DNA of 57,651 nucleotides from an uncultured Verrucomicrobiota bacterium (GCA_937901395.1 CALCDB010000017.1:1-57651), one strand, 5' to 3'; numbered from the stretch's first letter, positions 6,764-46,291 are shown. Notes: generated by a model not told the origin, from the sequence alone. A program made the numbers and translations.

Positions 6764-7966
6764 ATGAGAAAAAGAGCGATATATGCGGTAATTTGTGGCT
6801 TTCTGGCAAGCGATGTTGTTGCGAGCGGGTTTGGTCTATATGAGGCCTCATCCTCGACCTATGCGCTTGGCGGGGCGGTTATTGGCAAGGCGTTTGATGC
6901 ATCGGCGAACTTTTACAATCCAGCGACGTTGAGTGATATTACCAACATTACCATTACGGCTGGTTTCATGAGCGAGCATCCGCGTGGGCGCATTAAGGTG
7001 AATGGCGGGCCTTCCGAGGTAATGAACCCCGGAATGTTTTATCTGCCTCACGTTCACTTCGCCATTCCGTTGCCATGCGATTTCACCTTTGGTTTGGGGG
7101 TGATGCCTGAATATGGGTTGGGCTCGAAGTACGATGACAATTGGTCGTTGGCGTATAATTCATTGGAGACGACGGTTACGAGCTTTACGGTGAACCCGAA
7201 TGTCGCGTGGAAGTGGGGAGATTTTTCCATTGGCGCCGGTCTGAGATTCCTTTACTTTGATTTTGAACAGTATTCTTATCCATCGCCGATTCATAATCGT
7301 CTTAAGGGAGATAATCGGATGGGCGACTTCGGTTATCAGGTGGGTATTAAGTATGATGTTACGGAGAGTTTCGCGCTTGGTTTGGCGTATAAGTCGCAGA
7401 CGATTGTGCGGGTGGATGGCAGCACCGCCAATACCTCCGATATCCCGGCGTTATCCGCGCAGGCGCTCAAGGCGAGCGGAAACGCGTCCACCGAGATTAC
7501 CTTGCCGCAATCGATTGCAGGTGGCTTCAACTGGGATATCACCGACGATTGGCATTTGGGCGGAGTGGTGATGTGGACTCAATGGTCGTCGATTGGCGAT
7601 CTCGACTTCAATCTCAACGGAACTCACAAGCAGGTGCGCTTGCGGTGGAATGATACCTGGCGAGTAGGGCTTGCGCCAAGTTGGGATTTCGCGGAAGATT
7701 GGACGGCGATGTGCTCGTACGTTTACGAGAACGATTGTTGCGGCGATCAGGAGTCGACGATGCTGCCGGCCGCGGATCGTCACATGCTTTCGTTGGGCTT
7801 GTGTTGGAGAGTTTCGGCTAATTTCGACATCGGCATTACGTATGGCATGATTTTGATGGATGGCAAGCTCACGAATGCGCGTAATCCGGCGGGTGCGCTT
7901 GATACGTATCGTGCGTATCGCGGAATCTCGCACGCGGCTGGCATTACCTTCACCTATCGTTTCTGA
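6764..7966 (+). CDS. outer-membrane transport protein, FadL/OmpP1/TodX family
   Basis: Signal peptide, then GFGLYEASS at the mature N-terminus. Amphipathic beta-strand pattern and a C-terminal ..ITFTYRF. Confidence 0.8.
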   Translation: MRKRAIYAVICGFLASDVVASGFGLYEASSSTYALGGAVIGKAFDASANFYNPATLSDITNITITAGFMSEHPRGRIKVNGGPSEVMNPGMFYLPHVHFAIPLPCDFTFGLGVMPEYGLGSKYDDNWSLAYNSLETTVTSFTVNPNVAWKWGDFSIGAGLRFLYFDFEQYSYPSPIHNRLKGDNRMGDFGYQVGIKYDVTESFALGLAYKSQTIVRVDGSTANTSDIPALSAQALKASGNASTEITLPQSIAGGFNWDITDDWHLGGVVMWTQWSSIGDLDFNLNGTHKQVRLRWNDTWRVGLAPSWDFAEDWTAMCSYVYENDCCGDQESTMLPAADRHMLSLGLCWRVSANFDIGITYGMILMDGKLTNARNPAGALDTYRAYRGISHAAGITFTYRF

Positions 7967-7991
7967 TCTCGTCTATCCATCTTCGCTCCTT

Positions 7992-8097
7992 GGAGACACT
8001 TGGCCTTTTTGATACCGACACATTAGGCGGACTATAGGGACACTTTGCCTTTTTGATACCGACATATCGGCCGGACTATAGGGACACTTTGGGTCGG
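7992..8097. repeat. ~44-45-bp head-to-tail tandem repeat, 2.4 copies
   Basis: Copy 1 at 7992-8036: GGAGACACTTGGCCTTTTTGATACCGACACATTAGGCGGACTATA. Copy 2 at 8037-8080: GGGACACTTTGCCTTTTTGATACCGACATATCGGCCGGACTATA. Partial copy 3 at 8081-8097: GGGACACTTTGGGTCGG. Confidence 0.9.
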
Positions 8098-8289
8098 CAA
8101 CCCCGAGAGATTGGCATGAGGGCTCAGAGGGGTTAAGATATTGACAGGATTAACAGGATTTACATGATTGGAGAGGTGAATGTGGAGATATTGACAGATT
8201 GCTTTTTGGTATAGTGATATTGCCAAACCCCAAAGAAGACAATAGAAACTGGTAATTGGGGAAAGTAATTGCGGGAATGGCAGTTAAAA

Positions 8290-8298
8290 TGATATAAT
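8290..8298 (+). promoter_or_regulatory. extended -10 element TGATATAAT
   Basis: Lies 7 nt before ATG 8306, with no SD. Confidence 0.55.
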
Positions 8299-8305
8299 AT
8301 ACACG

Positions 8306-10024
8306 ATGAATATGACGAGCGATGATTTTGAGTTTGCTGTTTTAGCAAATATGGTCGACTACCCCGACAAAGCATTTACGGGGATTCGAGACATTGGTAT
8401 AGACGAAAGTTATTTTCATAACCCTGTCTATGTTAGCGCTTTCACCGAATTGATGCAAATTAGTGAAGAACCTGATAGAGATACGCGACGGAAAAAACTT
8501 TCTTCTGTTTTGCGTGATAAGTTCAACCCAGACGAGTTTCGTGATCGTTTCGCCTCGTTCGTCGCTAATCCTGCTAAGGTCAACTATTATCTGTGTGGCT
8601 TAGCCGAACAGGCAATTCGATACAATTGCAAAAAATCCATCAGCGAGGTGTTTAACAACGCATCACTGCAGAGCGACATGATTCCAGAATATGTCGCCAG
8701 TATCACCTCGGAGATGAATGCCCGACTCGATGCACTTAAGGCGTTTCGCAAATTGCCCGTCGAAAGCGACAAGAACGAAATTGACGGCACTAAGCCAATT
8801 CCCGAAGAGTTGCTTAACGCCCCTGGATTCATTGACGAGTACATAAAGTTCACCATGCGCACCGCTCAACGCCCCAATCGTGTGCTCGCATTCTCAGGCG
8901 CGCTTGCTATACTCTCAATTCTTACTGCTCGTAAGTATCAAAGTGTTCGTAAGGCAACGCCCAATCTCTATATCGTGGCGCTTGCTGAATCTGGGGTTGG
9001 CAAAGCTCATGCTCGCCATATCAACAAATCAATCGCTTCCGCTTGTAATATGTGCGATGCGATCGCTGATCGTATTGGCTCGGGGGAAGGACTTGAAGAT
9101 GCGCTTCGGCGCACACCAGCGATGCTCTTTCAAATTGATGAATTTGATACCTTGCTTAACGCAATGAAAAGTCCAAGCAACATCAGCGAGGGAATTTATA
9201 CCTATATTCTTAATCTATTTTCCGAAGCGCGTGAAGTTCATCACATTCGCAAGAAAGCAATGAGTGGCGAGCGAACAACCGCTCCAGACAAAATATATGC
9301 GCCCTCGGTTACAATCTACGCTACCGCTACCCCACAGCATTTCTACGACTCCCTTTCAAAGCGGGCGTTAGACAATGGTTTTATTGCCCGTTTGTTGATT
9401 TTCGAAGTCGGTAAGCGCGGAAAAATTGGCGACCTTACGGCAAGTGAAACTCTGCCATCTGAAATTTTGGAGCCGGCGCGAGTTTTCACCAATCGGCTTT
9501 GCCCCATTGACCAAATGCCAAATCCATACGTTGTGCCAGACGATGTCGGAGCCGATGGACGCGCTAAGGCCATTTCAGATGAAGCCGATGCGCTTTACGA
9601 TAAAAGCTGTGAACAACACGATGGCGCAGGTTTGGCGATATGGAATCGTGGGTTTGAGATGACGGATAAGCTTGCGCTTCTCTATGCATTGAGCGAAAAT
9701 CCTGCAATGCCGAAAATTACCGCAAAGGGACTTGATTGGGCGTGGAAAATTGTGCGCTACTGTTTTGAGCGTATGCTCGCGATGTCAAAGGAATACGTCT
9801 CAGCCGACCAGTATGATGCCGACGCAAATGCGGTATTGCGCAAGATTCGCTCTTATGGTGCAAAAGGCGTAATGCACAGCGAGATTTCGAGAGTATTGGG
9901 CTACACCTCAAAACGAATGGAATCTGCCATTAAGACGCTAATTGACCGTGAGTCGATTATTGTAACCTCGGGCAATCGAAATGCGAAAATTTATCGCATC
10001 AAGCAGAAAGGTAAGTTGAAATGA
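8306..10024 (+). CDS. replicative helicase-like protein: DnaB N-terminal-like domain + DUF3987-type P-loop NTPase + C-terminal wHTH-like tail
   Basis: N-terminus DFEFAVLANMV..YFHNPVYVSAFTELM resembles the DnaB N-domain. Walker A-like LAESGVGKAHA, Walker B-like LFQIDEFD, and NGFIARLLIFEV are present. The layout is typical of YfjI/P4-type mobile-element helicases. Confidence 0.65.
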   Translation: MNMTSDDFEFAVLANMVDYPDKAFTGIRDIGIDESYFHNPVYVSAFTELMQISEEPDRDTRRKKLSSVLRDKFNPDEFRDRFASFVANPAKVNYYLCGLAEQAIRYNCKKSISEVFNNASLQSDMIPEYVASITSEMNARLDALKAFRKLPVESDKNEIDGTKPIPEELLNAPGFIDEYIKFTMRTAQRPNRVLAFSGALAILSILTARKYQSVRKATPNLYIVALAESGVGKAHARHINKSIASACNMCDAIADRIGSGEGLEDALRRTPAMLFQIDEFDTLLNAMKSPSNISEGIYTYILNLFSEAREVHHIRKKAMSGERTTAPDKIYAPSVTIYATATPQHFYDSLSKRALDNGFIARLLIFEVGKRGKIGDLTASETLPSEILEPARVFTNRLCPIDQMPNPYVVPDDVGADGRAKAISDEADALYDKSCEQHDGAGLAIWNRGFEMTDKLALLYALSENPAMPKITAKGLDWAWKIVRYCFERMLAMSKEYVSADQYDADANAVLRKIRSYGAKGVMHSEISRVLGYTSKRMESAIKTLIDRESIIVTSGNRNAKIYRIKQKGKLK

Positions 10025-10659
10025 AAAACTATTTGGACTACGACGAAGACGCTGAACACGACAAGGCTCAACAAGCCCGCCACAAGGAATTCGTGGCTGG
10101 GTTAAGAAAGAGCATGAGTTTTGGACAGGATGACCCCAAGGAAATCATTCAGCGAGCGATGAAATTCTTACAAGATTGCACGACCGAACTCGATGAGGGC
10201 AAGGTGTCGACACTTGAATTTACAACTTGGGATACGATAAAATACATCCTTTCTTTTGATATGGAATACACCTATGCTGGCTTCGATAAGGATCAATGCC
10301 TTGGTGGAGATAAGCCAAAATTGTGCATTTTCGGGGCGAGTGATATGTTGAGCGAATCAGCCGATCAAGAGCGACTACGCAAATTGCTTAAAGCGTATCT
10401 TACCGCAGGGGCGGCACTATCAAGAAAAGCATCGTCTTCTGCCTATGAAGAGTGGATTAAGCTATTAATGGAACTTGAATTCACTGGTAGACACGGAATC
10501 TGCCAGTTTTCGCGAAAAGATGACGCAAATAAGTTCTTTAATCGTATGCGCGTTGCCTTAAAGCGTACTTGGGCGGATAACGAGGTTTATCAGCATATTT
10601 TGATTACAAGTAAACCCCCTACCCCCACACGGAAAAAGGGCCAAAAAAACGCGGTGTGA
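10021..10659 (+). CDS. hypothetical protein (island 1)
   Basis: 212-aa ORF with ATGA overlap to the helicase gene. No recognisable motifs. Confidence 0.55.
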   Translation: MKNYLDYDEDAEHDKAQQARHKEFVAGLRKSMSFGQDDPKEIIQRAMKFLQDCTTELDEGKVSTLEFTTWDTIKYILSFDMEYTYAGFDKDQCLGGDKPKLCIFGASDMLSESADQERLRKLLKAYLTAGAALSRKASSSAYEEWIKLLMELEFTGRHGICQFSRKDDANKFFNRMRVALKRTWADNEVYQHILITSKPPTPTRKKGQKNAV

Positions 10660-10666
10660 GGGGGGT

Positions 10667-10872
10667 GTACTTGTGGTCAAGGTAAAAAAGGTAGATAATT
10701 AATAATATATTTATTTATTATTACTATTATCATCAAATAACGCACTTTCTTGACCACAAGTTAATAGCAAGTAGATAACAAGTAGACCACAAGTAGCACT
10801 TGTTATCAAGCCCCATTTTTCGTCTAAAACCCCAATTTTCACTTGTGGTCTACTTGTGGTCTACTTGTGGTC
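10667..10872. other. origin-of-replication-like region: ACTTGTGGTC iterons flanking an AT-rich tract
   Basis: ACTTGTGGTC at 10669-10678. AT-rich tract at ~10693-10740. Inverted copies at 10750-10761 and 10783-10795. Three direct copies at exact 11-bp spacing (10841-10850, 10852-10861, 10863-10872). Confidence 0.6.
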
Positions 10873-11001
10873 ATTTTGCAAGATGTTTTGGTGTCTCAGA
10901 AGTAACATTTTTACTTTTAACCATTTGCAAAAAGTTTATCACGCAAAATTTACCTATAAAGAAAATTTGCGCAGAGATGTGGACACTACACGCCAATTTT
11001 T

Positions 11002-11010
11002 TGGTATAAT
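11002..11010 (+). promoter_or_regulatory. extended -10 element TGGTATAAT (island cassette copy 1)
   Basis: Lies 6 nt before ATG 11017. Part of a ~45-bp sequence repeated at 40458-40502. Confidence 0.55.
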
Positions 11011-11016
11011 ATAGCC

Positions 11017-11085
11017 ATGTCGTATGAAGAAGCGATAAAGAAAAATGAGTTATATTCCTCCATATACAATAAGCGAATATTATGA
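11017..11085 (+). CDS. putative leaderless mini-ORF (22 aa, MSYEEAIKKNELYSSIYNKRIL)
   Basis: ATG lies 6 nt after the -10 box. The first 9 codons are near-identical to the mini-ORF at 40476. Coding status unproven. Confidence 0.3.
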   Translation: MSYEEAIKKNELYSSIYNKRIL

Positions 11086-11157
11086 TACGATGAGAGCGTT
11101 TGATTGATGAGAAAAGGTATTGAATGAAGATGCTTGTGATAGTCGAAAGGGAATAAG

Positions 11158-11472
11158 ATGAGCATAGCGGTGTGTAAAAGCTGTGGATTGCAATTCTTCG
11201 TGGAAAATCATCCGTTGCCACGTGTTGAGCAATGTCCTCAATGTGGAGAAGCGGTGCTGCTGTCTAAAGACGAACATAGAGATAATGACGAGTCTTCATT
11301 CTGGCTCGGTGCACTTTTTGGAGGGTGGGGTGTGTTGTTTTCCGGTGCTGTAAAGGGCAAATCAGGAATCGATCATGCTCTTGGCGGCGTCTTTGTCGTG
11401 TGGTTGGGCCGTATTCTCGTAATGGCCATCTTGTTTCTGGTTGTTTTAATTGCCTTGTGGCTAAAGTTCTGA
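11158..11472 (+). CDS. small zinc-ribbon membrane protein
   Basis: CKSCG..x19..CPQCG zinc ribbon followed by two hydrophobic helices, with a GGGAA-type SD. Same architecture as 45104..45412. Confidence 0.6.
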   Translation: MSIAVCKSCGLQFFVENHPLPRVEQCPQCGEAVLLSKDEHRDNDESSFWLGALFGGWGVLFSGAVKGKSGIDHALGGVFVVWLGRILVMAILFLVVLIALWLKF

Positions 11473-11523
11473 TGACGAAAAGGAAAAAAGATGGAATGGC
11501 CCCGAAATAAGCGTTAAGATCCT

Positions 11524-11982
11524 ATGAAATGCGTATTCTCTCTACTGCTGATAGTCACCATTGGTTGTTGCTCGTCAACGGCTCTAGAACAGGGTTTGTG
11601 CAAAGGTGATAATTCGGCTATCAAATATTCCATTGGACAATTAGATGGTGTTATTGACGCAAAATCCGTCGATGAGATTTTAGCGATTTTAGGCCCACCT
11701 TCATATATCATTGGAAGTGGTATTGTACGGTACATATGGGCTTTTGATAATGGTGAGCGTTTGCAAGTGAATTGGCCTTATAGTAATGGAAGATGGCCAG
11801 CTGCAAATGTAATTCCTGCTTGGCATATCGATCCTCCAGTAATATCGCTAAAATCTAATGATAATAGTGTTGCAATTGTTAAAATCAATCATAAGCGACC
11901 AAATTTTACATATGTTGTTGAGTCTGATTCACCTTTTGTTGATGTTGAAGGCTGTTTGTTGCGGATAAAAGGGCACTTCTAG
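11524..11982 (+). CDS. putative lipoprotein (island 1)
   Basis: N-terminus MKCVFSLLLIVTIGCCSS is a signal peptide with a lipobox-like IGC. No other motifs. Confidence 0.55.
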   Translation: MKCVFSLLLIVTIGCCSSTALEQGLCKGDNSAIKYSIGQLDGVIDAKSVDEILAILGPPSYIIGSGIVRYIWAFDNGERLQVNWPYSNGRWPAANVIPAWHIDPPVISLKSNDNSVAIVKINHKRPNFTYVVESDSPFVDVEGCLLRIKGHF

Positions 11983-12317
11983 AATCTGGAGTCTCTACAA
12001 CAAATATTAACTGTAGACTTTGGGTGATTAGAGATGTTGATCCTTATCCAAAATGTTTCGATGTCAGAAACATACTTATAGATATTTCAGGCGATTTTGG
12101 AGACACATCCCCGAAATAACTAGAAAAAGTGAAGCCAAGATGAATACAATTGTAAGAATATTGCTTTTTGCTGGTTTGATGAATTTATTCGGGAAAAGGA
12201 GTGAAAAGTCTGTATGGTAAAGAAGGGTGTCCCCAATGGGATGTTGGAGAGGAGGAGGTTGAATTTGAAAAGATTGTGCAAGGGATGGAAAAGTTTTCAG
12301 ATTCGCGCAATGAATTA

Positions 12318-12326
12318 TGATATAAT
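12318..12326 (+). promoter_or_regulatory. extended -10 element TGATATAAT
   Basis: Lies 8 nt before ATG 12335. The TTG at 12332 listed in the ORF track is too close to the -10 box. Confidence 0.55.
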
Positions 12327-12334
12327 ATCGCTTG

Positions 12335-13411
12335 ATGACGTATGATGATTTGAGTTTAAGCGAGTTTCGTGGTTACTTTCAAGCGAAGGAGCCAGGAAAG
12401 CGCGAACGGGCGTTCGCGTGGTCTACGGCCATTGGATTACAAGATGTTGACGGACTTTCCGTCTCTCGGTATTTGGTTGAGACAGCTAAGGACCATATTG
12501 AGGGACGAATTACTCAATCCCAGGCGCGACGACGCATACACGACTATTACGAGGCGAAGAGCGAACAGCGTGCGCCAAATCTCGAGTTGCTTGAACCAGA
12601 TAAGGTGGCGGAGCGAATTGCAGCTGTCATCAATGATGGAGGGTTTGCCTTTACTCCGGAATATTTCATTTCACTCCACGCCAAATTATTCCGTGGAGTC
12701 TTATCATCGGCAGGGAAACTGCGGACACACAACATCCGCAAGCATGAGTGGGTATTGAAGAATGATTCGGTTATTTATGGCGACAAGGCGACGCTGAAGG
12801 CCTCGTTAGTGAGGAACTTCGCGGATGAACGTGAATACGATTACGGCGGTAAGTCGTTGGCAGAGATCATTCCGCATTTTACGCGCTTTATCGCACAGGT
12901 TTGGCAGGTGCATCCTTTCGGTGAAGGCAATACGCGCACGACTGCGGTCTTTGCCATCAAGTATCTGTGTGCACTTGGTTATCGCGTTGCAATCGACATA
13001 TTTCGAGATAACTCTTGGTATTTTCGTAATGCGCTTGTCAGAGCCAATTATGCCGATTATGCGCGGGGGGTGAAGCGAGATTGGGGGTATCTTGAATTGT
13101 TTTTCCGCAACTTGCTTTTGGGCGAAAAGAATGAGCTTAAGAACCGCTATTTGCTAATTGGCTTCAATCGTCCGAAGGAAGATGGCAAAGGTTGTCAGAA
13201 AAAGGTTGTCAGAAAAGGTTGTCAGAAAACGGTTGAACGCTTATTCGGTTTGCTTAAGGCACGTCCGCATTTGACGCAAATTGATATGGCTACGGCATTG
13301 GGGATTTCGCGTCAAGCGGTGCAGAAGCATCTCGCCAACTTGAAGGCCGCAGGGCGTATCCGCCGTGTGGGCCCCGACAAGGGTGGTCATTGGGAGACGA
13401 GGGTAATTTGA
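12335..13411 (+). CDS. Fic/DOC family protein with C-terminal winged-HTH
   Basis: Fic motif variant HPFGEGNTRTTAVF. C-terminal LTQIDMATALGISRQAVQKHLANLKAAGRIRRVG is HTH-like. Confidence 0.85.
   Translation: MTYDDLSLSEFRGYFQAKEPGKRERAFAWSTAIGLQDVDGLSVSRYLVETAKDHIEGRITQSQARRRIHDYYEAKSEQRAPNLELLEPDKVAERIAAVINDGGFAFTPEYFISLHAKLFRGVLSSAGKLRTHNIRKHEWVLKNDSVIYGDKATLKASLVRNFADEREYDYGGKSLAEIIPHFTRFIAQVWQVHPFGEGNTRTTAVFAIKYLCALGYRVAIDIFRDNSWYFRNALVRANYADYARGVKRDWGYLELFFRNLLLGEKNELKNRYLLIGFNRPKEDGKGCQKKVVRKGCQKTVERLFGLLKARPHLTQIDMATALGISRQAVQKHLANLKAAGRIRRVGPDKGGHWETRVI
13187..13229 (+). repeat. 3x tandem AAGGTTGTCAGAA repeat with 14- and 13-nt spacing, inside the Fic gene linker
   Basis: Core copies at 13188-13200, 13202-13214 and 13215-13227. 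They are read in different frames (KGCQK / KVVRK / GCQK). Confidence 0.9.
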
Positions 13412-13447
13412 GGGTTGGAATGGGTATGGACGATGTGAGTTAAAATG

Positions 13448-13456
13448 TGGTATAAT
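13448..13456 (+). promoter_or_regulatory. extended -10 element TGGTATAAT
   Basis: TGGTATAATATAGCCATG is identical over 18 nt to the island cassette promoters. Lies 6 nt before ATG 13463. Confidence 0.55.
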
Positions 13457-13462
13457 ATAGCC

Positions 13463-14272
13463 ATGATTACATTGATTATTGCTATTGTAGTTGCGGGGGG
13501 CGTTTTCGCTTCCACGCATTATGTTTTTGATTGGAGTCTCATCTGGAGCATCGTGATGGGAGTCGTCGGATTTGGCGTTTTTCAAGTGCTGATGAGCATC
13601 TTGATTCAACGTCGAGTAAAGGCGGATATGTTGCGAGTTCAGGATATCCTTATGGGCGGGCAAAAACGTTTGCAACAGAAGATGCAACGTTGGCAGATGC
13701 GTCCACCGGGTTCGCTTCAAGCGGCGCAAAAGGAGATTTTCGAAGATACGAAGTTGTTCGTGAAATCGGCATTGGAAGAGACGGAAAAGCTCAGCAAGTA
13801 CAGACTTTGGGTGCCGATGATGGAGAGGCAGATCGCGACGGCGAGGGTGCAGCTTAGTTGGATGATAAAAGATTTCAAGGCGGTTGATAACAACATGAAG
13901 AAGGCGTTGTTATTGGATCCAAGCATGGCGGCGATTAAGATGGCGCGTATGTATATGCTCGATGAGCCGATAGATGCGATTATGAAGGTGTATCACAAGG
14001 GCGTCGCGAGAGTTCGCTACAATGGGAATGTGCTTTTGGCCGCTACGATGAGTTGGATTCAAGTGCATAGAAATGATGCGGATGGCGCATTCAAGACATT
14101 GACGGAGGCGCTTAAGAAGAGCGACAACGCGACATTGAAGCAAAATCACGAGCATCTTATGAATAATCGAGTTGCGCACTTCTCCAATTCGGGCATTGGC
14201 GATCAATGGTATTCGCTATTATTGGAAGAGCCGAAAGTTCATGTGCAGCGTCAGAGGAGCGTTTATCGTTAA
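13463..14272 (+). CDS. membrane protein (two N-terminal TM helices, helical C-terminal domain)
   Basis: The ORF-track start at 13445 lies inside the -10 box, so the next in-frame ATG at 13463 (MITLIIAIVVAGG..) is preferred. Confidence 0.65.
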   Translation: MITLIIAIVVAGGVFASTHYVFDWSLIWSIVMGVVGFGVFQVLMSILIQRRVKADMLRVQDILMGGQKRLQQKMQRWQMRPPGSLQAAQKEIFEDTKLFVKSALEETEKLSKYRLWVPMMERQIATARVQLSWMIKDFKAVDNNMKKALLLDPSMAAIKMARMYMLDEPIDAIMKVYHKGVARVRYNGNVLLAATMSWIQVHRNDADGAFKTLTEALKKSDNATLKQNHEHLMNNRVAHFSNSGIGDQWYSLLLEEPKVHVQRQRSVYR

Positions 14273-15866
14273 GAAAGCCATAGTTTTGGCGGCGGGGTTG
14301 GGGACGAGATTGCGACCACTCACTTGCGCCGTGCCGAAGCCCCTGATGCCAATATGGGGCGAGCAGATGCTCGCGCGAATCGTGAGGATGCTTAGGGAAT
14401 GGGGAGTTGACGATATCGTAGTGAATTGTCATTATCTGCATGAGCAAATCGAGCGGTGGTGCGCGGAAAATGGATGTAAGGCGAGTTACGAGCCGACGAT
14501 TTTAGGTACGGGTGGGGTGCTTAATCCCTTGCGCGATTGGATTAAGGACGAACCATTTTATTTGGTGAATGGCGATATCGTAGTCGAAGGAGCGAAGAGG
14601 TTGGAGCTGCCGGCGGATGATAGCGTAATCGGGTGTTGTTTGGTATCGCAGATGGGGCCGCGCACAATTGAAGTCGAACCCGAATATGGGTATGTGACGA
14701 ATTGGCGAAGCGATGATGCGGGAATGGAAGGAACGTGGACGTATTGCGGGATTGCGGCATTAAAGCCAGCAATCCTTAATTATGTGGAGAGAGAGGGTGA
14801 AGCCAGCATCGTTAGCGCATACACGAAGGCAATGATGGATGGACGATTCATCAAGGCCATCGCTCCAGATGATTTATTATGGGAAGACGCTGGCAGCATT
14901 GAACGTTATATCGAGCTTAATCACGACGACAAGGACAATGCATTCGCGGATATACCAGCGTTGAAGGCGGCTGGCGCGACGGCATCGGTAGAGTTCATTG
15001 GCGCACGAGGAAGCGAGCGGGTGTTCTTCAAGGATGGCGATAAGGTGTTCATCATCTATGACGATGCGAAGCGAAAGGAAAATGCTCGTTATGCGGGGCA
15101 CGCGAGGTGGTTGAAAGCGAAGGGGATTCCGGTTCCATCGGTGATTGCCGAATTGCCGGAATGGAAGACGATAGTAATGGAGAATGCGGGTAGCGAGCGC
15201 AAGTTCTCGCTTGAAGAATATGTCAAGATAGTCGAGGGCTTGGTGAAATTCAACGCATTGGGAGCGGAGAAGGATATGCCTGAACTTGAGCCGCCCTTCG
15301 ATATGAAGATATGGACATGGGAACAGAATCTATTCGCGGAGTATTGCTTGCAGGGCAGATATTTTATGGAGATGCCAAAAGCGGTAAGCGACGAGTTGAA
15401 GAATGTCGCATCGCTGTTGGAGCGTGAACCCAAAGCGCTGGTGCATCGTGATTTTCAATCGACGAATGTGCTATGGAAGAATGGAGATTTTAACTTCATC
15501 GATTTTCAGGGGATGCGATTGGGTCCGGCAGCGTATGATCTGGCTTCGCTCGTATATGATCCATACGTGCGGTTTACGGAAGGCGAGCGGAGGGCGTTGA
15601 TTAAATTATACGCAAGAACCGCGGGGCGCGAAGAGATCGTTAACATTATGCCATACGCGGCGGTTGAGCGTTTGGTGCAGTGTTTGGGAGCATACGGGCG
15701 ATTAGCATCGGTAGGTCAAAATCAATTCGAGAAGTATGTATTGCCGGCATTGGAGAATTTGTTGGATGTAGCGGACAAGGCGAATCTTGATGCGTTAGGC
15801 GGATTAGCCGAAGATTTGATAGCGAAGGAATCGCCGCATCATTGTCACCATCATCACCACGAATGA
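14241..15866 (+). CDS. bifunctional MurU-like nucleotidyltransferase / AmgK-like sugar kinase (peptidoglycan recycling), His-rich C-terminus
   Basis: N-terminal KKAIVLAAGLGTRLRPLT is a nucleotidyltransferase signature. C-terminal LVHRDFQSTNVLW..FIDFQGMRLGPAAYDLASLVYDP is an APH-type kinase as in AmgK. The tail is SPHHCHHHHHE. The start is uncertain (14241 ATG preferred over 14172). Confidence 0.8.
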   Translation: MCSVRGAFIVKKAIVLAAGLGTRLRPLTCAVPKPLMPIWGEQMLARIVRMLREWGVDDIVVNCHYLHEQIERWCAENGCKASYEPTILGTGGVLNPLRDWIKDEPFYLVNGDIVVEGAKRLELPADDSVIGCCLVSQMGPRTIEVEPEYGYVTNWRSDDAGMEGTWTYCGIAALKPAILNYVEREGEASIVSAYTKAMMDGRFIKAIAPDDLLWEDAGSIERYIELNHDDKDNAFADIPALKAAGATASVEFIGARGSERVFFKDGDKVFIIYDDAKRKENARYAGHARWLKAKGIPVPSVIAELPEWKTIVMENAGSERKFSLEEYVKIVEGLVKFNALGAEKDMPELEPPFDMKIWTWEQNLFAEYCLQGRYFMEMPKAVSDELKNVASLLEREPKALVHRDFQSTNVLWKNGDFNFIDFQGMRLGPAAYDLASLVYDPYVRFTEGERRALIKLYARTAGREEIVNIMPYAAVERLVQCLGAYGRLASVGQNQFEKYVLPALENLLDVADKANLDALGGLAEDLIAKESPHHCHHHHHE

Positions 15867-39973: not shown

Positions 39974-40049
39974 TAGTAAGAAAGTAATGCCGACGCATTG
40001 GGCTTACCATATAGGCACTAAATCTTTTTGATGTCGTTATATCGCCTTT

Positions 40050-40093
40050 CCCATACCGTTGCATGGTTCATTCCATACCGTTGCATGATTCGT
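40050..40093. repeat. 22-bp tandem direct repeat x2 (CCATACCGTTGCATG core), followed by further GTTGCA(T) motifs to ~40130
   Basis: CCCATACCGTTGCATGGTTCAT at 40050-40071 and TCCATACCGTTGCATGATTCGT at 40072-40093. These are followed by CGATGCATGA, GCGTTGCATA and AGTTGCAC. Confidence 0.85.
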
Positions 40094-40137
40094 TGCTCCC
40101 CGATGCATGAGGCGTTGCATATAGTTGCACGGGTGAG

Positions 40138-40174
40138 AAATGGCGCCATTTGTGGGGTGAAATGCCGCCATTTC
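40138..40174. promoter_or_regulatory. pair of 14-16-bp palindromes (operator-like)
   Basis: Perfect palindrome AAATGGCGCCATTT at 40138-40151. Near-palindrome GAAATGCCGCCATTTC at 40159-40174. Their centres are 22 bp apart. Confidence 0.45.
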
Positions 40175-40460
40175 TGAGTCGTGCACTTGCTCAACATGAA
40201 AAATGCATATTTTTAGCATTATTTCGTCATATTTTAACTATCGATTCAACATACGCTCAAGTTTGCAGATTGGTGGTTGAAGAGGGAGATTTCGACAGGA
40301 TTAACTTCGATTGGAGATGTGGGAGGTTGAAGGTAAACAGTGGCATTTAAATTGATTTGTAAGATATTTCGCTTTCCTTTGCTGACCCAGTAGATATTAC
40401 CATTCTTTGGAAAAAATTGGAATAATATATTATTAGAATGAAACATGAAAGAAAAAATTT

Positions 40461-40469
40461 TGGTATAAT
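40461..40469 (+). promoter_or_regulatory. extended -10 element TGGTATAAT (island cassette copy 2)
   Basis: Lies 6 nt before ATG 40476. Part of the ~45-bp repeat shared with 11001-11045. Confidence 0.55.
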
Positions 40470-40475
40470 ATAGCC

Positions 40476-40514
40476 ATGTCGTATGAAGATGCAATAAAGA
40501 AAGCGGAGGAATGA
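40476..40514 (+). CDS. putative leaderless mini-ORF (12 aa, MSYEDAIKKAEE) translationally coupled to the next gene
   Basis: Its codons GCG GAG GAA TGA supply a GGAGGA SD and an ATGA overlap with ATG 40511. The peptide start is shared with the mini-ORF at 11017. Confidence 0.3.
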   Translation: MSYEDAIKKAEE

Positions 40515-41227
40515 GCGAGAATAGAGGCGATAGTGGGGCTAGAGATTCTAGAAGCTTTAGTTCTTCTAGAGGGACGATGGGTTCTAGTACCCCGCCTCGC
40601 ATTCTTAGGCCTCAGGCGAAATGGGAAGACCTTTATTTTTACAAAAAGGCGGTGGTTCTCGATCAGCTTACTTTTATTTTTTGTCAGAGGTTTTTGCCGA
40701 AGTATGGCGATAGAACAGTAGATCAAATGATCCAAGCGGCGCGGAGCGGAAAGCAAAATATCGTTGAGGGGCTTGCTGATGGCGTTACTTCGACCGAGAT
40801 GGAACTTAAGCTACTCAATGTCGCGAGGGCGAGTTTGAAGGAACTCAAGGAGGATTACCTCGATTATCTTAGACGGCATGAGCTTGAACTTTGGAATGCG
40901 AAGCATCCGCGCTATGATGGGCTATTGAAGTTTTGCCGTGAACGCAATGAGCTTGCCGACTATCAGCCGTTTTTGGGGAAGTGGACGGATGAGGAGCTTG
41001 CGAATTGTGCGAATACGCTTTGTCACATGGTAGATAAGATGATGTCGACATTTCTTGCGAAGAAGGAAAAGGATTTCACGGAGAATGGGGGAATTAAAGA
41101 GCGCATGATGGCAGCGCGTCTTGGTCGGCGACGGACGCAAAGCGAGGAGATTGCTGCGCTCAAGGCGGAAAATGCGTGGCTTAAGCACAAGATTGAAAGT
41201 TTGAAGCGGGGGATGGGAAATGATTGA
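40511..41227 (+). CDS. four-helix-bundle protein (23S rRNA intervening-sequence protein family) with C-terminal suffix/coiled-coil region
   Basis: LYFYKKAVVLDQLTFIFCQRFLP..DQMIQAARSGKQNIVEG..ELKLLNVARASLKEL matches the four-helix-bundle family pattern. The N-terminus is disordered and Ser/Arg-rich. Confidence 0.7.
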   Translation: MSENRGDSGARDSRSFSSSRGTMGSSTPPRILRPQAKWEDLYFYKKAVVLDQLTFIFCQRFLPKYGDRTVDQMIQAARSGKQNIVEGLADGVTSTEMELKLLNVARASLKELKEDYLDYLRRHELELWNAKHPRYDGLLKFCRERNELADYQPFLGKWTDEELANCANTLCHMVDKMMSTFLAKKEKDFTENGGIKERMMAARLGRRRTQSEEIAALKAENAWLKHKIESLKRGMGND

Positions 41228-41282
41228 TGCCGGATTGCTTTGTCGCAAGCTTCTTTTGCTAGCAGCCATATAGGGAAAGGTC

Positions 41283-43391
41283 GTGAGAGGAAATATAAGT
41301 TTGAGCGATAAGTGTATAAGCCCTGATTTTTATCATGCGAGCATTGCCGATTTTTGTTTGGCGAATGCTGGGAATGTCTTTGCTACTATTCAGACTACAA
41401 ATAATAATGACCTTAAGCAACAGCAATCTGCGACTTGGGAGACCGAGATCAAATGTCTGCAAGATGCGTTGCTTAGTATAAAGGATGGTTCGATTTCTTT
41501 TGAATATAATATTCCCCGTTTGGGTAAGCGTATCGATGTAGTAATTCTTGTTAATGGGATTGTCTTTGTTCTTGAATTCAAGGATAATGCAGATAAGATT
41601 TTGACGGAAGATGTGAATCAAGTTTGGGATTATGCGCTTGATCTTAAGAACTTCCATTCAACAAGTCATACTTTGCCGATAGTGCCGGTTTTGGTTGGAA
41701 CAAATTATGAGCTTAACGGATTTGGAGTGATTGAAAAAGGTGAGGGTGAAGTTTATCGTCCTTTGGTTATTAATGAGCAAGATATTGCATCTTTAATACA
41801 TGAAGTATCCCAGGTAATTGGGGCAAGTGATTTTGATTATACCGATTGGCGCAAAGGCGTTTATTCTCCAACGCCGACAATTATAGATGCTGCACGAACA
41901 TTATATTCGCGTCATAGTGTGGCTGAAATTAAGCGCGCAGATGCTGATGCAAAGAATCTAACTGATACGTGTGCTGCGATTGATAAAATCATTGAACGCG
42001 CTAAATGGAATAAAGAAAAGATAGTTTGTTTTGTAACTGGTGTGCCTGGTGCGGGCAAGACATTGGTTGGGTTAAATGTTGCAACCAGTTTTACTCCTGA
42101 AACAAGTAAATCCGCTGAAGATAATATGGCGGTATATCTTAGCGGGAATGGCCCTTTGGTGAAGATTCTCATTGAAGTTCTAACGCGAGATGCTTGCGCG
42201 AAGCAGAAAGCATTGATTGCTGCTGGCAAAATGGAGAAGAAGTCGGCGGAGACCAAAAAGAGCATTGGGTCGAAAATAAATAAGTTTATACAAGCAGTTC
42301 ATCATTTCAGAGACGCTTATCTTATTGGCATTAAAGTTGACAATGGTGAGATTGTGCCGGATGAAAATTATTGGGGTTCACCTGAGAGCGCAAAGCATAA
42401 GTGGTGTCCACCTGAGCATATAGCAATCTTTGATGAAGCTCAGCGAGCATGGAATCATGAAATGCTGTTTGATTTCATGAAGCGCAAGAAGCATTTTGAT
42501 GGCTTTCCGATGAGTGAACCAGAGTTTTTAATTTCCTGCATGGATCGTCGCGATGATTGGGCGGTTGTGGTTTGCTTAGTCGGTGAGGGTCAGGAAATTA
42601 ATCGTGGTGAGATGGGAATAAATGGGTGGGTTGAGGCGTTGCAAAATAGATTCTCGAATTGGAAGGCGTGTATTTCGGAGGAAATGTTTGACGAACGATT
42701 TGGCGCAAAAGAGTCGCTGACGAAGTTAGAAGCAGAGGGGCGTATTGAGCGCTCAAAAGATTTGCATTTAAGTGTAAGTTTGCGAAGCTTTAGAAGCGGG
42801 CATTTAGCGTCATTCGTTCAATCGGTCTTAGATCACGATATTGAAAACGCTAAAGAAACATATAATAAGCTTGAAAAGTATCCGATTGTATTGACGCGTG
42901 ATATTGATAAGGCTAAAAGTTGGCTTCGGGTGCGTGCTCGTGGTACGGAGAGATATGGGCTTGTTGTAAGTTCGCAAGCTTATCGATTGAAACCAATGGC
43001 AATTGATGTTCGTGTTAAGGCAGACCCTGTCCTTTGGTTTCTAAATGATTATACAGATATTCGTAGTTCCTATTACATGGAAGATGTTGCGACTGAGTTT
43101 GATATTCAAGGGTTGGAATTGGATTGGGTTGGCGTTGTTTGGGATGGTGATTTCCGTAGTATGGGCAGTGATTGGGCGAATTTTAGCTTCAAAGGCAGCA
43201 AATGGCAAAAGGTCAATAAAGAGGAGCGCAAGCAGTATCAGAAGAATGCTTATCGTGTGCTTTTAACTCGTGCTCGGCAGGGAATGGTAATTTGTGTGCC
43301 CAAAGGAAGCGACGACGATCCAACCCGCAAGCCAGCATTTTATGATTCAACATATAACTATCTCAAGTCGCTTGGAATGAAAGAGATATAG
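41283..43391 (+). CDS. PD-(D/E)xK nuclease-like N-domain fused to DUF2075 (Schlafen-type) P-loop ATPase/helicase
   Basis: N-domain GKRIDVVILVNGIVFVLEFKD (D..ExK). Walker A VTGVPGAGKTLVG and Walker B IAIFDEAQRAW. Also VVCLVGEGQEINRGE and YRVLLTRARQGMVICVP. GTG start with an AGGGAAAGG SD. Confidence 0.8.
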   Translation: MRGNISLSDKCISPDFYHASIADFCLANAGNVFATIQTTNNNDLKQQQSATWETEIKCLQDALLSIKDGSISFEYNIPRLGKRIDVVILVNGIVFVLEFKDNADKILTEDVNQVWDYALDLKNFHSTSHTLPIVPVLVGTNYELNGFGVIEKGEGEVYRPLVINEQDIASLIHEVSQVIGASDFDYTDWRKGVYSPTPTIIDAARTLYSRHSVAEIKRADADAKNLTDTCAAIDKIIERAKWNKEKIVCFVTGVPGAGKTLVGLNVATSFTPETSKSAEDNMAVYLSGNGPLVKILIEVLTRDACAKQKALIAAGKMEKKSAETKKSIGSKINKFIQAVHHFRDAYLIGIKVDNGEIVPDENYWGSPESAKHKWCPPEHIAIFDEAQRAWNHEMLFDFMKRKKHFDGFPMSEPEFLISCMDRRDDWAVVVCLVGEGQEINRGEMGINGWVEALQNRFSNWKACISEEMFDERFGAKESLTKLEAEGRIERSKDLHLSVSLRSFRSGHLASFVQSVLDHDIENAKETYNKLEKYPIVLTRDIDKAKSWLRVRARGTERYGLVVSSQAYRLKPMAIDVRVKADPVLWFLNDYTDIRSSYYMEDVATEFDIQGLELDWVGVVWDGDFRSMGSDWANFSFKGSKWQKVNKEERKQYQKNAYRVLLTRARQGMVICVPKGSDDDPTRKPAFYDSTYNYLKSLGMKEI

Positions 43392-43412
43392 AGTTGCATT
43401 GAGTGTAGTGGA

Positions 43413-45089
43413 ATGAGCGGAAGCAGTCGAGAAATATCTTCTATGGGAGTAAGCCTACCAGCAATCAGGGGTAGGAGTAGAATTAAGACAATAATTTCGC
43501 GCGACGGTGGATTTTCTGACAAGGAATTGTTGCTAGACTGGGACTGGCAGAAGAATAGTGAAAGACCTGAGAATTATACAAAGCATAGCAGTTTTTATGT
43601 GTGGTGGAAGTGTCATGTGTGTGGATATGAATGGAAATCAAGAATCTCAAATCGTGTTAATAGACGAGGGTGCCCAGCATGTTCTGGTAGGGTGTTGCAT
43701 GTCGGGCACAATGATTTTGCGACAACAGAACCAGAACTTGCCAAAGAATGGCACCCTGTAAATAATGGATTATTGAGACCGACTGATGTTATGCGGGGGC
43801 AGGCGAGGTTAGTATGGTGGCTTTGCCCGAATGGGCATTCGTATCGGGCTTCGTTAAATAAGCGGACATCAGACAGAACAGGATGCCCGATTTGTAATAG
43901 TGGGCGGCAAACATCATTTCGAGAACAGGCATTTTACTACTACATCAAGAAGATATATCCTAGCGCGATTAGTCGGTATAAGCCAGATTGGCTAAAACGT
44001 ATGGAGCTTGATATTTACATCCCAGAGAAACGATTGGCGATTGAGTATGATGGGGCAGCATGGCATAAAATATCAAACTTTGATCGTGAACGGCTTAAGT
44101 ATGAGTTATGTACAAAACATGGTGTTAAACTTTGGCGTGTTAAAGAGCATATGCCAGAATCTGGTTATGGACTTGCGCATCAACTATTTAGTGTGCCTAA
44201 TGTGGAGACAGCGCACGGCTTTAAGACATTGTTGATGGTTGTCGTGTCGGCCCTGGATCCAAAGTGTAATATGTGGACAAAAAACAATCCACTTAAGGTA
44301 TGGACGGATGTTGATATTGATATTGAACGAGATCGTTATGAAATTAATCAATATCGGTTTGTGGTTAAGAACTCATTACAAGAGATGCGGCCAAATATTG
44401 CGAAGGAATGGCATCCGACGAAAAATGATGGATGGTCTCCAATTGGTCTTTCATGGAAGAGCGAACGAAAGGTTTGGTGGCTGTGTGACAAATGTGGCAA
44501 TGAATATGAAATGACGGTTGCACATCGTGTAACTGGTAATGGATGTCCAGTTTGTGCAAAAGAAAAGTTCGCAAGAACTTACCGTAAAAACCGAGTCAAT
44601 AAATATGGTGGAATAGTTGATTCAAAGTTACTTAATGAGTGGAATTACGAAAAAAATAAAGGTCTAACACCAGATGCATTCCCTAAAGGATCTAATGATA
44701 AGGTATGGTGGAAATGTGAGAAATGCGGATATGAATGGAAGGCGAAGATATCTAACCGACATCATGGAAGGGGGTGCCCATGTTGCTCAAATCGTATTGT
44801 GGTCAAGGGTAAAAATGACCTCTTGACGCTATATCCAGAATTGTGCAAGGAGTGGGATTACGAGAAGAATGGGTTATTATTGCCAAATCAGATTACTCCT
44901 GGAAGGAATGCTAAGGTTTGGTGGAAATGCTCTAAGTGCGGACATTCTTATGCGGCTCCACCTAATAGAAGAACTTCGCAAAGGTCTGGTTGTCGTAAAT
45001 GTGCTGATAAAATGATATGGGATATTCGTAGGGCTAATGTCTTAAAGCGCATGCAGGTTGGTCGAATTTCACAAAGTCTTAGTAATTAG
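43413..45089 (+). CDS. five-fold zinc-ribbon repeat protein with central Vsr/DUF559-like PD-(D/E)xK endonuclease core
   Basis: Five copies of (V)WW(K/L)C..CG..W......R.....GCP.C, for example VWWKCHVCGYEWKSRISNRVNRRGCPACSG. Central core is MELDIYIPEKRLAIEYDGAAWHK. The exact start is uncertain. Confidence 0.8.
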   Translation: MSGSSREISSMGVSLPAIRGRSRIKTIISRDGGFSDKELLLDWDWQKNSERPENYTKHSSFYVWWKCHVCGYEWKSRISNRVNRRGCPACSGRVLHVGHNDFATTEPELAKEWHPVNNGLLRPTDVMRGQARLVWWLCPNGHSYRASLNKRTSDRTGCPICNSGRQTSFREQAFYYYIKKIYPSAISRYKPDWLKRMELDIYIPEKRLAIEYDGAAWHKISNFDRERLKYELCTKHGVKLWRVKEHMPESGYGLAHQLFSVPNVETAHGFKTLLMVVVSALDPKCNMWTKNNPLKVWTDVDIDIERDRYEINQYRFVVKNSLQEMRPNIAKEWHPTKNDGWSPIGLSWKSERKVWWLCDKCGNEYEMTVAHRVTGNGCPVCAKEKFARTYRKNRVNKYGGIVDSKLLNEWNYEKNKGLTPDAFPKGSNDKVWWKCEKCGYEWKAKISNRHHGRGCPCCSNRIVVKGKNDLLTLYPELCKEWDYEKNGLLLPNQITPGRNAKVWWKCSKCGHSYAAPPNRRTSQRSGCRKCADKMIWDIRRANVLKRMQVGRISQSLSN

Positions 45090-45103
45090 ATAAGGGGAAA
45101 AAG

Positions 45104-45412
45104 ATGATTATTAAATGTTTAGAGTGTGGCCATGATGTGAGTGATAAGGCGATGGCGTGCCCAAATTGTGGTGCGCCAATTGCACAAACGCGCGATTACA
45201 CGCCAGTTCGTTATGATGTAAAAGCGGATGAGCAGTATGGGACATTTTGTTGGTGGTTAGGTTTTTTATTTAATCTATTTGGCATCCTAATTGGAGCGAT
45301 AATTTCTCGTGGATATGGCGCAAAGAAAGCATTTATTGGGATGTTGTGGAGCTGGCTGTTGTTCGCTATTTTAGCTATTGGCGTTGTTATACATGGGATG
45401 CGCACATATTGA
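45104..45412 (+). CDS. small zinc-ribbon membrane protein
   Basis: CLECG..x11..CPNCG zinc ribbon plus two TM helices, with an AAGGGGA SD. Same architecture as 11158..11472. Confidence 0.65.
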   Translation: MIIKCLECGHDVSDKAMACPNCGAPIAQTRDYTPVRYDVKADEQYGTFCWWLGFLFNLFGILIGAIISRGYGAKKAFIGMLWSWLLFAILAIGVVIHGMRTY

Positions 45413-45450
45413 TTTTCTCATTCAGTGACAGCGGTTCCGCATGGTGATTA

Positions 45451-46101: not shown

Positions 46102-46274
46102 TGTGCATTGTGGGCGATTCAGATAATTTGAGGGACATACCCTCGGAAAGGCAATAAAATCAGGGGGTTGGGAAAATTGAGGTTGGAAGGGGAAGAGAAG
46201 ACACGATTGGAAAGGTGGAAGAAGAGTTGGATGCGAAGAGCCAAAATATAATTTCACACGGAGACGGGAAAATA

Positions 46275-46283
46275 TGGTATAAT
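46275..46283 (+). promoter_or_regulatory. extended -10 element TGGTATAAT
   Basis: Lies 8 nt before ATG 46292. Confidence 0.55.
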
Positions 46284-46291
46284 TCTCGGCA

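Follow-up and report, generated by a model that had tools for sequence, protein, structure and literature searches.

The stretch of DNA analysed here (the window, 57,651 nucleotides) comes from an uncultured Verrucomicrobiota bacterium (GCA_937901395.1 CALCDB010000017.1:1-57651), a gut member of the Kiritimatiellia whose chromosome carries an island of about 5.5 kb at positions 7967-13447. We interpret this island as a replicon of a known kind in a new form: it joins a replication protein of the DUF3987 type (Rep), a second gene (orf212 in the window, orfX in related loci) and an origin (ori), it is devoid of a recombinase and of a PrimPol domain, and it carries a hot-spot for defence cargo. 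It is rather probable that the island is a horizontally acquired element of phage or satellite ancestry whose core is a self-contained Rep-ori replicon of the type known from the pathogenicity islands of Staphylococcus aureus (SaPI) and phage-inducible chromosomal islands (PICI). The order of its parts is a 44-nt tandem repeat, an open reading frame (ORF) of 572 aa, an ORF of 212 aa, an iteron region, and three cargo ORFs. The original prediction, made from the sequence alone, had described a replicon-like module with an iteron origin and Fic cargo, and this description stands, strengthened by comparison with relatives: the unit is kept in at least nine other loci, and the putative DNA-binding domain and the iterons change together. 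The AT-richer block beginning right after a fadL-type gene, the tandem-repeat region, the iterons around an AT-rich tract directly after the 212-aa gene, the three cargo proteins and the leaderless-type promoters were likewise all found, with the coordinates given below.

The predicted initiator-helicase of 572 aa (8306..10024, + strand) matches Pfam DUF3987 (PF13148) with an E-value of 5.9e-9 (36 bits against a cut-off of 27) and, over the C-terminal two-thirds of the profile, PHROG 3022 "DNA primase" (2e-61). Three regions can be distinguished in this protein, called N-terminal helical domain (residues 1-150), DUF3987 AAA+ core (approximately 165-500) and C-terminal winged helix (approximately 505-568). 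The Walker A motif (SGVGK, 229-233), the Walker B motif (DEFD, 278-281) and several arginines are invariant in 18 family members. The top PDB matches (Foldseek) of the AlphaFold2 model, whose predicted local distance difference test (pLDDT) score is 81.8, are chains of MCM7/5/2, ORC, ClpX and DnaB. Residues 505-568 match the winged helix of RPC6/RPC39, and in the model the segment 502-565 shows the order helix-helix-helix-beta-beta. Both profile and fold searches place the protein among replication proteins, as had been supposed. A DUF3987 protein of other defence-carrying mobile genetic elements (MGEs), AgaPH, has been experimentally shown to be a helicase (PMC11724360).

The same protein had been described as the combination of a DnaB-N-like domain with a DUF3987 P-loop. 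The second part of this description holds, with DUF3987 above its cut-off and both Walker motifs in place, but the first part is weak. Residues 1-150 match DnaB-N (PHROG 19) with an E-value of 0.0024; Pfam DnaB (PF00772) gives weak matches, below threshold, in 5 of 16 family members (best E-value 0.023); and the hhalign comparison of the N-domain with residues 30-79 of Escherichia coli DnaB is also weak (P 0.011), although in register with an E..VL...DF...H..IF signature. A search of 5.8 billion proteins yielded about 20 full-length relatives of the helicase, with identities of 31-99%. Many more distant homologues align only over residues 164-565 approximately and carry an N-terminal PrimPol domain (PF09250) instead, whereas the family of the window has no fused PrimPol and shows the helical domain in its place. 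Our hypothesis is that the N-domain could recruit the host DnaG primase, as the N-domain of DnaB does; if the DnaB-N label is right, this would explain the missing PrimPol in the sub-family. Exact-protein look-ups of the helicase and of the neighbouring FadL gave no match.

The helicase gene is under purifying selection. Compared with that of a 99% identical relative (contig L001), it shows 39 synonymous and only 7 non-synonymous codon differences, which argues for selection and not for decay. A decayed element had been one of the options of the original prediction; these counts, together with intact catalytic motifs and perfect iterons, speak against that word.

The start codon of the 212-aa gene orf212 (10021..10659, + strand) overlaps the stop codon of the helicase gene (ATGA). 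Its product had been listed as an unknown protein, and this was borne out, since no family match was obtained in Pfam, PHROG, NCBIfam and PADLOC, and its AlphaFold2 model (pLDDT 79), an all-alpha helical bundle with one beta-hairpin, found no match in PDB and BFVD (best E-values 0.28-0.6). Out of 1.84 billion cluster representatives, no more than 80 belong to this family, and the larger proteins that contain the C-terminal half of orf212 also have no recognised domains. Wherever the DNA just downstream is available, the helicase gene is always followed by an orf212 homologue of about 170-223 aa, often with the 4-nt ATGA overlap. Because of the gene overlap, which indicates coupling, and of this strict co-occurrence, orf212 probably encodes a partner or a regulator of the helicase. 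A hidden recombinase was also considered and rejected: no fold or profile match was found, and the invariant residues do not fit tyrosine or serine recombinases.

The predicted origin of replication (10669..10873, unstranded) consists of iterons and an AT-rich tract. The iteron ACTTGTGGTC is present in six exact copies in the 57.6-kb window, all of them within 10669-10872. One direct copy (10669-10678) is followed by the AT-rich tract of about 55 nt (approximately 10690-10745) and by inverted copies at 10752-10807, two exact and two degenerate; after a spacer of about 45 nt, three direct iterons are arranged head-to-tail at 10841-10873 with an 11-nt period. A C-run/G-run inverted repeat (CCCCCACAC...GTGTGAGGGGGG; 10612..10668, + strand) runs across the stop codon of orf212 right up to the first iteron. 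This inverted repeat is found in five loci in spite of a protein identity of about 30%, and in each of the five it folds better than shuffled sequence (z from -1.9 to -3.6). The role of a chromosomal origin was rejected for this region: GC skew stays positive on both sides, so that a long-term function of that kind is not indicated.

DNA of relatives was gathered from five sources, and the unit formed by helicase, orfX and origin recurs in at least nine other metagenomic loci, among them L213, L002, L003, L049, L050, L212 and L216. In these seven the layout of the origin is the same, namely the C-run/G-run inverted repeat across the stop codon of orfX, a single iteron, an AT tract of 55-65 nt, three to four inverted iterons at an 11-nt period, a spacer, and approximately three direct iterons. 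However, the iteron sequences are different: ACTTGCAAYC in L213, TTGATAGCAGT in L002, CCATTGCACAA in L003, AGATATCACCA in L049, CCAAGTTCCC in L050 and TGACTGCACAA in L212, with L216 differing as well. Three further loci (L209, L210 and L211) contain the helicase-orfX pair, and their contigs stop between a few bases and 50 nt past orfX. Such ends at the origin recur among the metagenome contigs bearing the module; they may reflect population heterogeneity, with branching of the assembly graph at strain-variable cargo, a step in copy number, or an assembly artefact.

The iterons are probably read by the C-terminal winged helix of the helicase. In L213, whose iterons differ from those of the window, residues 518-566 of the helicase are only 53% identical to the window protein, versus 93% over residues 446-517; in L002, also with other iterons, the figures for the winged helix-turn-helix (wHTH) segment 518-566 and for 446-517 are 57% and 86%, respectively. 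The wHTH of L001, by contrast, is 100% identical to that of the window, and its near-identical sister contig L214 keeps the window iterons. The orf212 homologue of L213 is 90% identical to orf212, with scattered changes. It is this divergence of the wHTH where the iterons change, along with the winged-helix match, that assigns iteron recognition to the helicase C-terminus.

Beyond the iterons, a conserved backbone tail (10874..11085, + strand) begins with about 130 nt. An outward promoter (TGGTATAAT, 11002-11010) comes next, and then, at the head of the variable cargo region, a leader or small ORF (11017-11085, MSYEEAIKK...). Past the iterons, the homology between the window and L213 (80% over 448 nt) runs to position 11043 and gives way to complete divergence. 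In the window the divergent part is the Fic set, whereas in L213 the shared backbone is followed by a DUF1016 gene and a restriction-modification (R-M) system of the LlaJI type (two methylases, an AAA_5 protein and RE_LlaJI). In L002, an MmeI-type R-M gene adjoins the module, on its other side. The same backbone with different cargo, plus the R-M gene near L002, suggests that the region just downstream of the origin behaves as an exchange hot-spot for defence genes, with a conserved outward promoter ahead of it. The R-M cargo of L213 has at its far end a 33-nt hairpin-containing repeat (GGGTCGCAGTGGGGTCTGACCCCATTGGTACGT) in two copies (10034-10066 and 10425-10457), which bracket a small ORF. 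This repeat may be a terminator, a repetitive extragenic palindromic (REP)-like element or a cassette boundary; the window has no copy of it.

The first cargo gene of the window (11158..11472, + strand) codes for a 104-aa protein with a Zn-ribbon (CxxC...CxxC, weak Zn-ribbon matches only) and C-terminal transmembrane segments. The second (11524..11982, + strand) codes for a putative lipoprotein of 152 aa, as judged from a signal peptide ending in ...VTIGC (lipobox), with no family match in Pfam, PHROG, NCBIfam and PADLOC. The third (12332..13411, + strand) codes for a protein with a Fic domain (HPFGEGNTR) and a C-terminal wHTH (Pfam Fic 2.3e-9 and HTH_11 1e-7; also SoFic 5.5e-8). The latter fits the PADLOC candidate defence family PDC-S72 with an E-value of 1.1e-110 and contains the HPFx(D/E)GNxR motif, and it is thus a candidate anti-phage defence protein. 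In the linker between its Fic domain and its wHTH, the gene contains a tandem repeat of 13-14 nt (AAAGGTTGTCAGA, 13175-13235, 3.6 copies) that encodes a repeated KGCQKxV peptide.

Extended -10 promoters (TGnTATAAT) are located at 8290, 11002 and 12318, each with an ATG 6-8 nt downstream, in agreement with the leaderless type proposed originally. That of the helicase (TGATATAAT, 8290-8298) lies 7 nt before its start codon within the upstream region 8132..8305 (+ strand), and position 8132 is also where homology with the 99% identical contig L001 starts; the Fic gene has its own promoter, again TGATATAAT (12318-12326). The pattern TGNTATAAT-N6-ATG occurs five times in the window, against 0.1 expected. 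Promoters of the form TGnTATAAT, 6-7 nt, ATG appear to be standard in this Kiritimatiellia lineage.

The foreign character of the island is indicated by its composition and by its absence from relatives. GC content falls to 0.37-0.48 within 8001-13500, while it is 0.49-0.58 in the left flank and 0.47-0.51 in the right one. The left neighbour is a FadL/TodX-type outer-membrane gene (6764-7966, Pfam Toluene_X 1e-46), and the right neighbour is a conserved gene of 269 aa with its own promoter. Orthologues of the latter were found in 45 GTDB species of gut and rumen Kiritimatiellia, with identities of 56-75%, and in these species the gene is followed by a murU/amgK fusion and then by a 706-aa gene. 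In none of the 45 do the 10 kb upstream of the orthologue of the 269-aa gene contain helicase, orf212 or Fic. Low GC and this absence together argue that the island is foreign and horizontally acquired. The comparison with relatives thus turned out favourable to the original prediction, with one reservation: the island genes are lacking at the orthologous gene, but fadL is missing there too, a break in synteny, and since no relative shares the fadL neighbour an exact empty site cannot be drawn.

The right boundary of the island was placed by orthologue comparison at the native leaderless promoter and start codon of the chromosomal 269-aa gene (13448..13465, + strand). A TGnTATAAT-N6/7-ATG arrangement is kept at the start codon in most of the 39 orthologues examined, so that the true start is ATG 13463 (MITLI...) and the mechanical ORF (13445-14272), which begins at ATG 13445, starts too early. 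This conservation also indicates that leaderless extended -10 promoters are the norm in the lineage. Further to the right, a MurU-like nucleotidyltransferase and an AmgK-like kinase are fused in one ORF (14172-15866; mechanical ORF of 564 aa from TTG 14172). For this fusion, alignments with orthologues point to a start further downstream; it ends in a His-rich tail (HHCHHHHHE) and is kept in relatives.

The left noncoding end of the island (7967..8131, + strand) contains the 44-nt tandem repeat (7995-8091, 2.2 copies, 90% matches), whose units end in CTATAGGGACACTTTG and which is possibly an operator or an end site of the island. The idea that the repeat unit is a dispersed element was rejected, as no copy exists elsewhere in the window or in more than 200 loci. 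Short repeat arrays upstream of the helicase are locus-specific in the window, L212, L049, L051 and L050; examples are CTATAGGGACACTTTG in three copies, AGGGACTTTTCGC in two, TAGGTC in four and GGTAGCGCTACCTTT in three. These arrays are unlike the iterons of their own locus, and they may be operators for a second DNA-binding activity, perhaps that of orfX.

A recombinase was looked for at several levels. Families of integrases, transposases, relaxases and capsid proteins are absent from the island ORFs according to Pfam, PHROGs, NCBIfam and PADLOC, as had been noticed from the sequence alone. Of the 44 ORFs of at least 200 aa in the window, 30 were covered by the scan (the island ORFs and 25 others). 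The 25 further ORFs, among which no recombinase, transposase or relaxase was found, clearly belong to the chromosome (they encode alanine racemase, topoisomerase I, DnaE and a GspE-type secretion ATPase, among others). The genes flanking the modules of L003, L049, L050, L216 and L211, as far as examined by Pfam within about 10 kb, include no recombinase either; for these five loci about 10 kb is available at least upstream, and on both sides in four of them. The contexts of the module are diverse: PriA...Mla...tRNA-synt_1c and an acetyltransferase in L003; a BACON-repeat protein and a TPR protein in L049; HisRS, YmdB and tRNA-Ser on one side and unknown proteins and a glycosyltransferase on the other in L050; iPGM, an amidase and ABC-F before FabH... 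in L216; and ...fmt in L211. As far as these genes can tell, the missing recombinase is a trait of the family. Master repressor, packaging or hijacking genes (terS, cpm, ppi, alpA and similar) were also absent from the island ORFs in PHROG, Pfam and NCBIfam, and an Rfam scan of the island gave no match.

With respect to the ends of the module, the position directly downstream of a tRNA gene is the classic site of site-specific integration. A tRNA-Ser(tga) gene lies directly upstream of the module in L050 (5572-5658), and so does a tRNA-Pro(ggg) gene in L212 (21-97); no duplication of the tRNA 3' end was detected downstream of either module in the available sequence. Terminal inverted or direct repeats around the module, searched for in five loci, were limited to 15 nt of low complexity in L050 and 11 promoter-like nt in the window. 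An 18-nt direct repeat of the window (TGGTATAATATAGCCATG, at 11002 and 13448) was considered as a pair of att sites and discarded: for the most part it reflects the lineage promoter consensus, and a third identical copy is found at 40461. Beyond the promoter consensus there is only the identity of 45-54 nt that includes the leader. A scan of viral contigs for a 29-nt junction sequence gave no matches.

The lineage of the helicase looks phage- or satellite-derived rather than plasmid-derived. Its homologues include 260 phage records annotated as primase or primase/helicase (22-26% identity), which are PrimPol-DUF3987 primase-helicases, versus a single one of 72,556 plasmids in PLSDB. In the gut phage locus L053, the gene of a 37% identical helicase has terminase, AntA, Bro and ParB-methylase genes around it and is directly followed by an AT-rich region of repeats. 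It is on these counts and on the context of L053 that the derivation rests.

A second low-GC island is present in the window at 39975-46290, with a GC content of 0.38-0.45, flanked by an M28 peptidase gene and a gene for a GspE-type ATPase. Its cargo appears defence-like and consists of a PDC-S41/Schlafen-type helicase (702 aa, E-value 1e-262), a NERD protein, a DUF4379 zinc-finger/restriction endonuclease-like protein, a Zn-ribbon protein with transmembrane segments like that of the first island, and a 23S_rRNA_IVP-like protein. The helicase/origin module is missing from this second island. However, a stretch of 54 nt (40458-40511) shows 100% identity with the promoter/leader of L213, and its first 45 nt (40458-40502) are 96% identical to window positions 10999-11043, which points to a related element that has lost its replicon or has always been without it. 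The left ends of the two islands show a weak similarity (score 33, against a shuffle mean of 19.6, with 1 of 200 shuffles tied).

The following mechanism is proposed. The 572-aa protein would act both as initiator and as replicative helicase, its winged helix recognising the 10-11-nt iterons, as suggested by the joint change of wHTH and iterons across loci and by analogy with SaPI Rep. Hexamers of the DUF3987 AAA+ core would then assemble on either side of the AT tract, melt it and load themselves; the fold and motifs required are present, and the loading step itself is presumed. The N-terminal helical domain would take the place of PrimPol and perhaps recruit host DnaG, a step suggested by weak matches. 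The 212-aa orphan might be a stoichiometric partner, that is, a loader, a regulator or a copy-control factor. Past the origin, the conserved outward promoter and leader would express swappable cargo, the Fic set here and the LlaJI-type R-M system in a relative. As no recombinase is encoded, the functions for insertion and excision would have to come in trans, from a helper phage, from another integrative element or from the host; failing this, the origin would fire in situ.

Mobilisation in trans, as a satellite, was one of the options of the original prediction and is the best remaining reading, favoured mainly by the adjacency to tRNA genes and by the sporadic distribution. Candidate alternative routes of entry and exit are in-situ firing without excision or an unrecognised activity of orfX. 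Several points weigh against the view of the island as an acquired SaPI/PICI-type replicon. The relatives available for comparison are only 56-75% identical and lack fadL at the site, hence they provide no true empty-site junction; no direct repeats of the att type bound the island; a circular form found no support, since terminal overlaps are present in none of nine related contigs; and no helper element was identified. GC skew is the same before and after the predicted origin, so that the latter does not serve the chromosome as a long-term origin. Moreover, a coupled 212-aa gene separates helicase and origin, contrary to SaPI; similarity at the sequence level to SaPI Rep or Cch structures is lacking; and the DnaB-N assignment of the N-domain is weak (E-values of 0.002-0.02).

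The absence of integrase, att sites, packaging genes and regulators would also be expected if the island were what is left, in inert form, of a prophage, a satellite or an integrative element whose recombination and packaging genes were deleted while the replication genes have not yet decayed. The phage-derived lineage of the helicase and the second island, which keeps only the 54-nt promoter/leader and cargo and suggests that such elements erode, fit this explanation as well. However, the strong purifying selection on the helicase (39 versus 7 differences), the perfect iterons and the invariant catalytic motifs do not, and the three-part unit recurs, with nothing else phage-like, in at least five loci for which both flanks are available, whereas independent erosion would not repeat itself in this way; a remnant is therefore unlikely. 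Similarly unlikely is a small integrated iteron plasmid that entered by homologous or illegitimate recombination and can exist free. Although the compact set of rep, origin and cargo (about 3-5 kb) and the 2-5-kb contigs of several family members are suggestive of a plasmid, these contigs are not circular and most of them have chromosomal flanks. In addition, the initiator is a helicase and not a WH-WH protein of the RepA type, and no partition or mobilisation (par/mob) genes were found in the island. The word plasmid, used in the original prediction as one option, is disfavoured on these grounds and by the ratio of phage to plasmid homologues mentioned above.

If the missing recombinase is a family trait, as the five loci indicate, the island might also be a resident amplification unit, domesticated or semi-selfish, in which a trigger such as phage infection leads to in-situ firing of the origin. 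Excision would not be needed, and the adjacent defence cargo or the flanks would be over-replicated, for gene dosage or for a spread resembling lateral transduction. The cargo hot-spot directly downstream of the origin, behind the outward promoter, and the metagenome contigs that break at the origin, consistent with heterogeneity or with a change in copy number, agree with this possibility. On the other hand, no obvious defence cargo lies beside the modules of L003, L049 and L216, the sporadic distribution and the low GC point to mobility, and the tRNA genes directly upstream in two loci suggest site-specific integration. We know of no precedent for a resident in-situ amplification unit of this type, which also counts against it, and we regard it as unlikely on balance. 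A bolder and likewise doubtful proposal is that the unit of about 3 kb formed by promoter, helicase, orfX and origin constitutes a new recombinase-free element of the Planctomycetes-Verrucomicrobia-Chlamydiae (PVC) bacteria, either a mobile replicon linked to orfX or a resident accessory origin. The mobile version could insert by a replication-linked route involving orfX, and the resident one could amplify defence cargo in situ when triggered.

An acquired phage- or satellite-derived element with a SaPI/PICI-type replicon remains our preferred reading, and it would extend this style of replication to a phylum of uncultured gut and rumen bacteria, combined there with a novel domain architecture and with an orphan protein as obligatory partner. 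It would also imply that such replicons can sit in chromosomes without a recombinase and yet stay under selection, and that the region downstream of the origin marks a hot-spot of anti-phage gene exchange. Should it turn out that the unit moves or is amplified with no recombinase, this would amount to a novel mechanism, either of island mobility or of gene-dosage control. Kiritimatiellia are, to our knowledge, currently without vectors, and a compact 3-kb replicon of predictable specificity could seed genetic tools for them.

Several known systems can be compared with the island. The cis-mobilizable elements (CIMEs) of the Streptococcus ICESt type are integrated, have no recombination genes of their own and are thought to move with help in trans; they are defined by their retained att sites, whereas no att sites are identifiable in the island. 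Membership of the Xer-dependent IMEX (integrative mobile elements exploiting Xer) family is argued against by the presence of modules at many different loci and by the lack of a GC-skew switch. With iteron plasmids (pSC101, R6K, RK2, pPS10; initiators RepA, pi and TrfA) the island shares direct repeats beside an AT-rich DNA unwinding element, spaced by about one helical turn. However, the initiators of these plasmids are WH-WH proteins without helicase activity that need DnaA, DnaB and DnaC, while that of the island is itself a helicase.

P4-like satellites resemble the island in their size, in an initiator of the primase-helicase type with repeated sites, and in a hot-spot for anti-phage genes. 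P4 has the alpha primase-helicase with its Toprim primase domain, ori/crr, an integrase, cos and psu/delta/sid, but integrase, cos, psu/delta/sid and Toprim are all lacking in the island. A closer likeness is offered by the AgaPP/AgaPH MGEs, which combine PrimPol and PriCT-DUF3987 proteins with a prokaryotic Argonaute (pAgo) and other defence cargo (PMC11724360; PrimPol-PV1, PMC5862659). They are also integrated, use a DUF3987 helicase as replicative motor and carry variable defence cargo, and some copies adjoin a tRNA gene. Nevertheless, these elements possess a tyrosine or serine integrase, att repeats and a primase that belongs to the archaeo-eukaryotic type (AEP), whereas the island has neither integrase nor primase, and in its helicase the PriCT/PrimPol part is replaced by the helical domain with weak likeness to DnaB-N.

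SaPI Reps are self-loading helicases in which a C-terminal winged-helix domain (WHD) reads the iterons; these come directly downstream of rep and flank an AT-rich centre on its two sides, in opposite orientation (PMC9371898). The island differs from them in its DUF3987 ATPase and in its iterons, which are 10-11 nt long with an 11-nt period instead of penta- or hexanucleotides. It also differs from SaPI and PICI in its host phylum, Kiritimatiellota, and in the absence of integrase, Stl-type repressor, terS and capsid-remodelling genes; membership of the PICI class fails since there are no integrase or att sites, repressor or packaging genes. Related members of the helicase family are fused to a primase, as in the pri-rep of SaPI5. 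The organisation of the replicon is nonetheless that of the SaPI/PICI Rep-ori systems (Rep1, PriRep5, Rep2): a single protein is the predicted initiator and hexameric AAA+ helicase, its predicted C-terminal winged helix would confer origin specificity, divergent DNA-binding domains match differing iterons, and the origin lies 3' of the replication operon with iterons of opposite orientation flanking an AT-rich centre.

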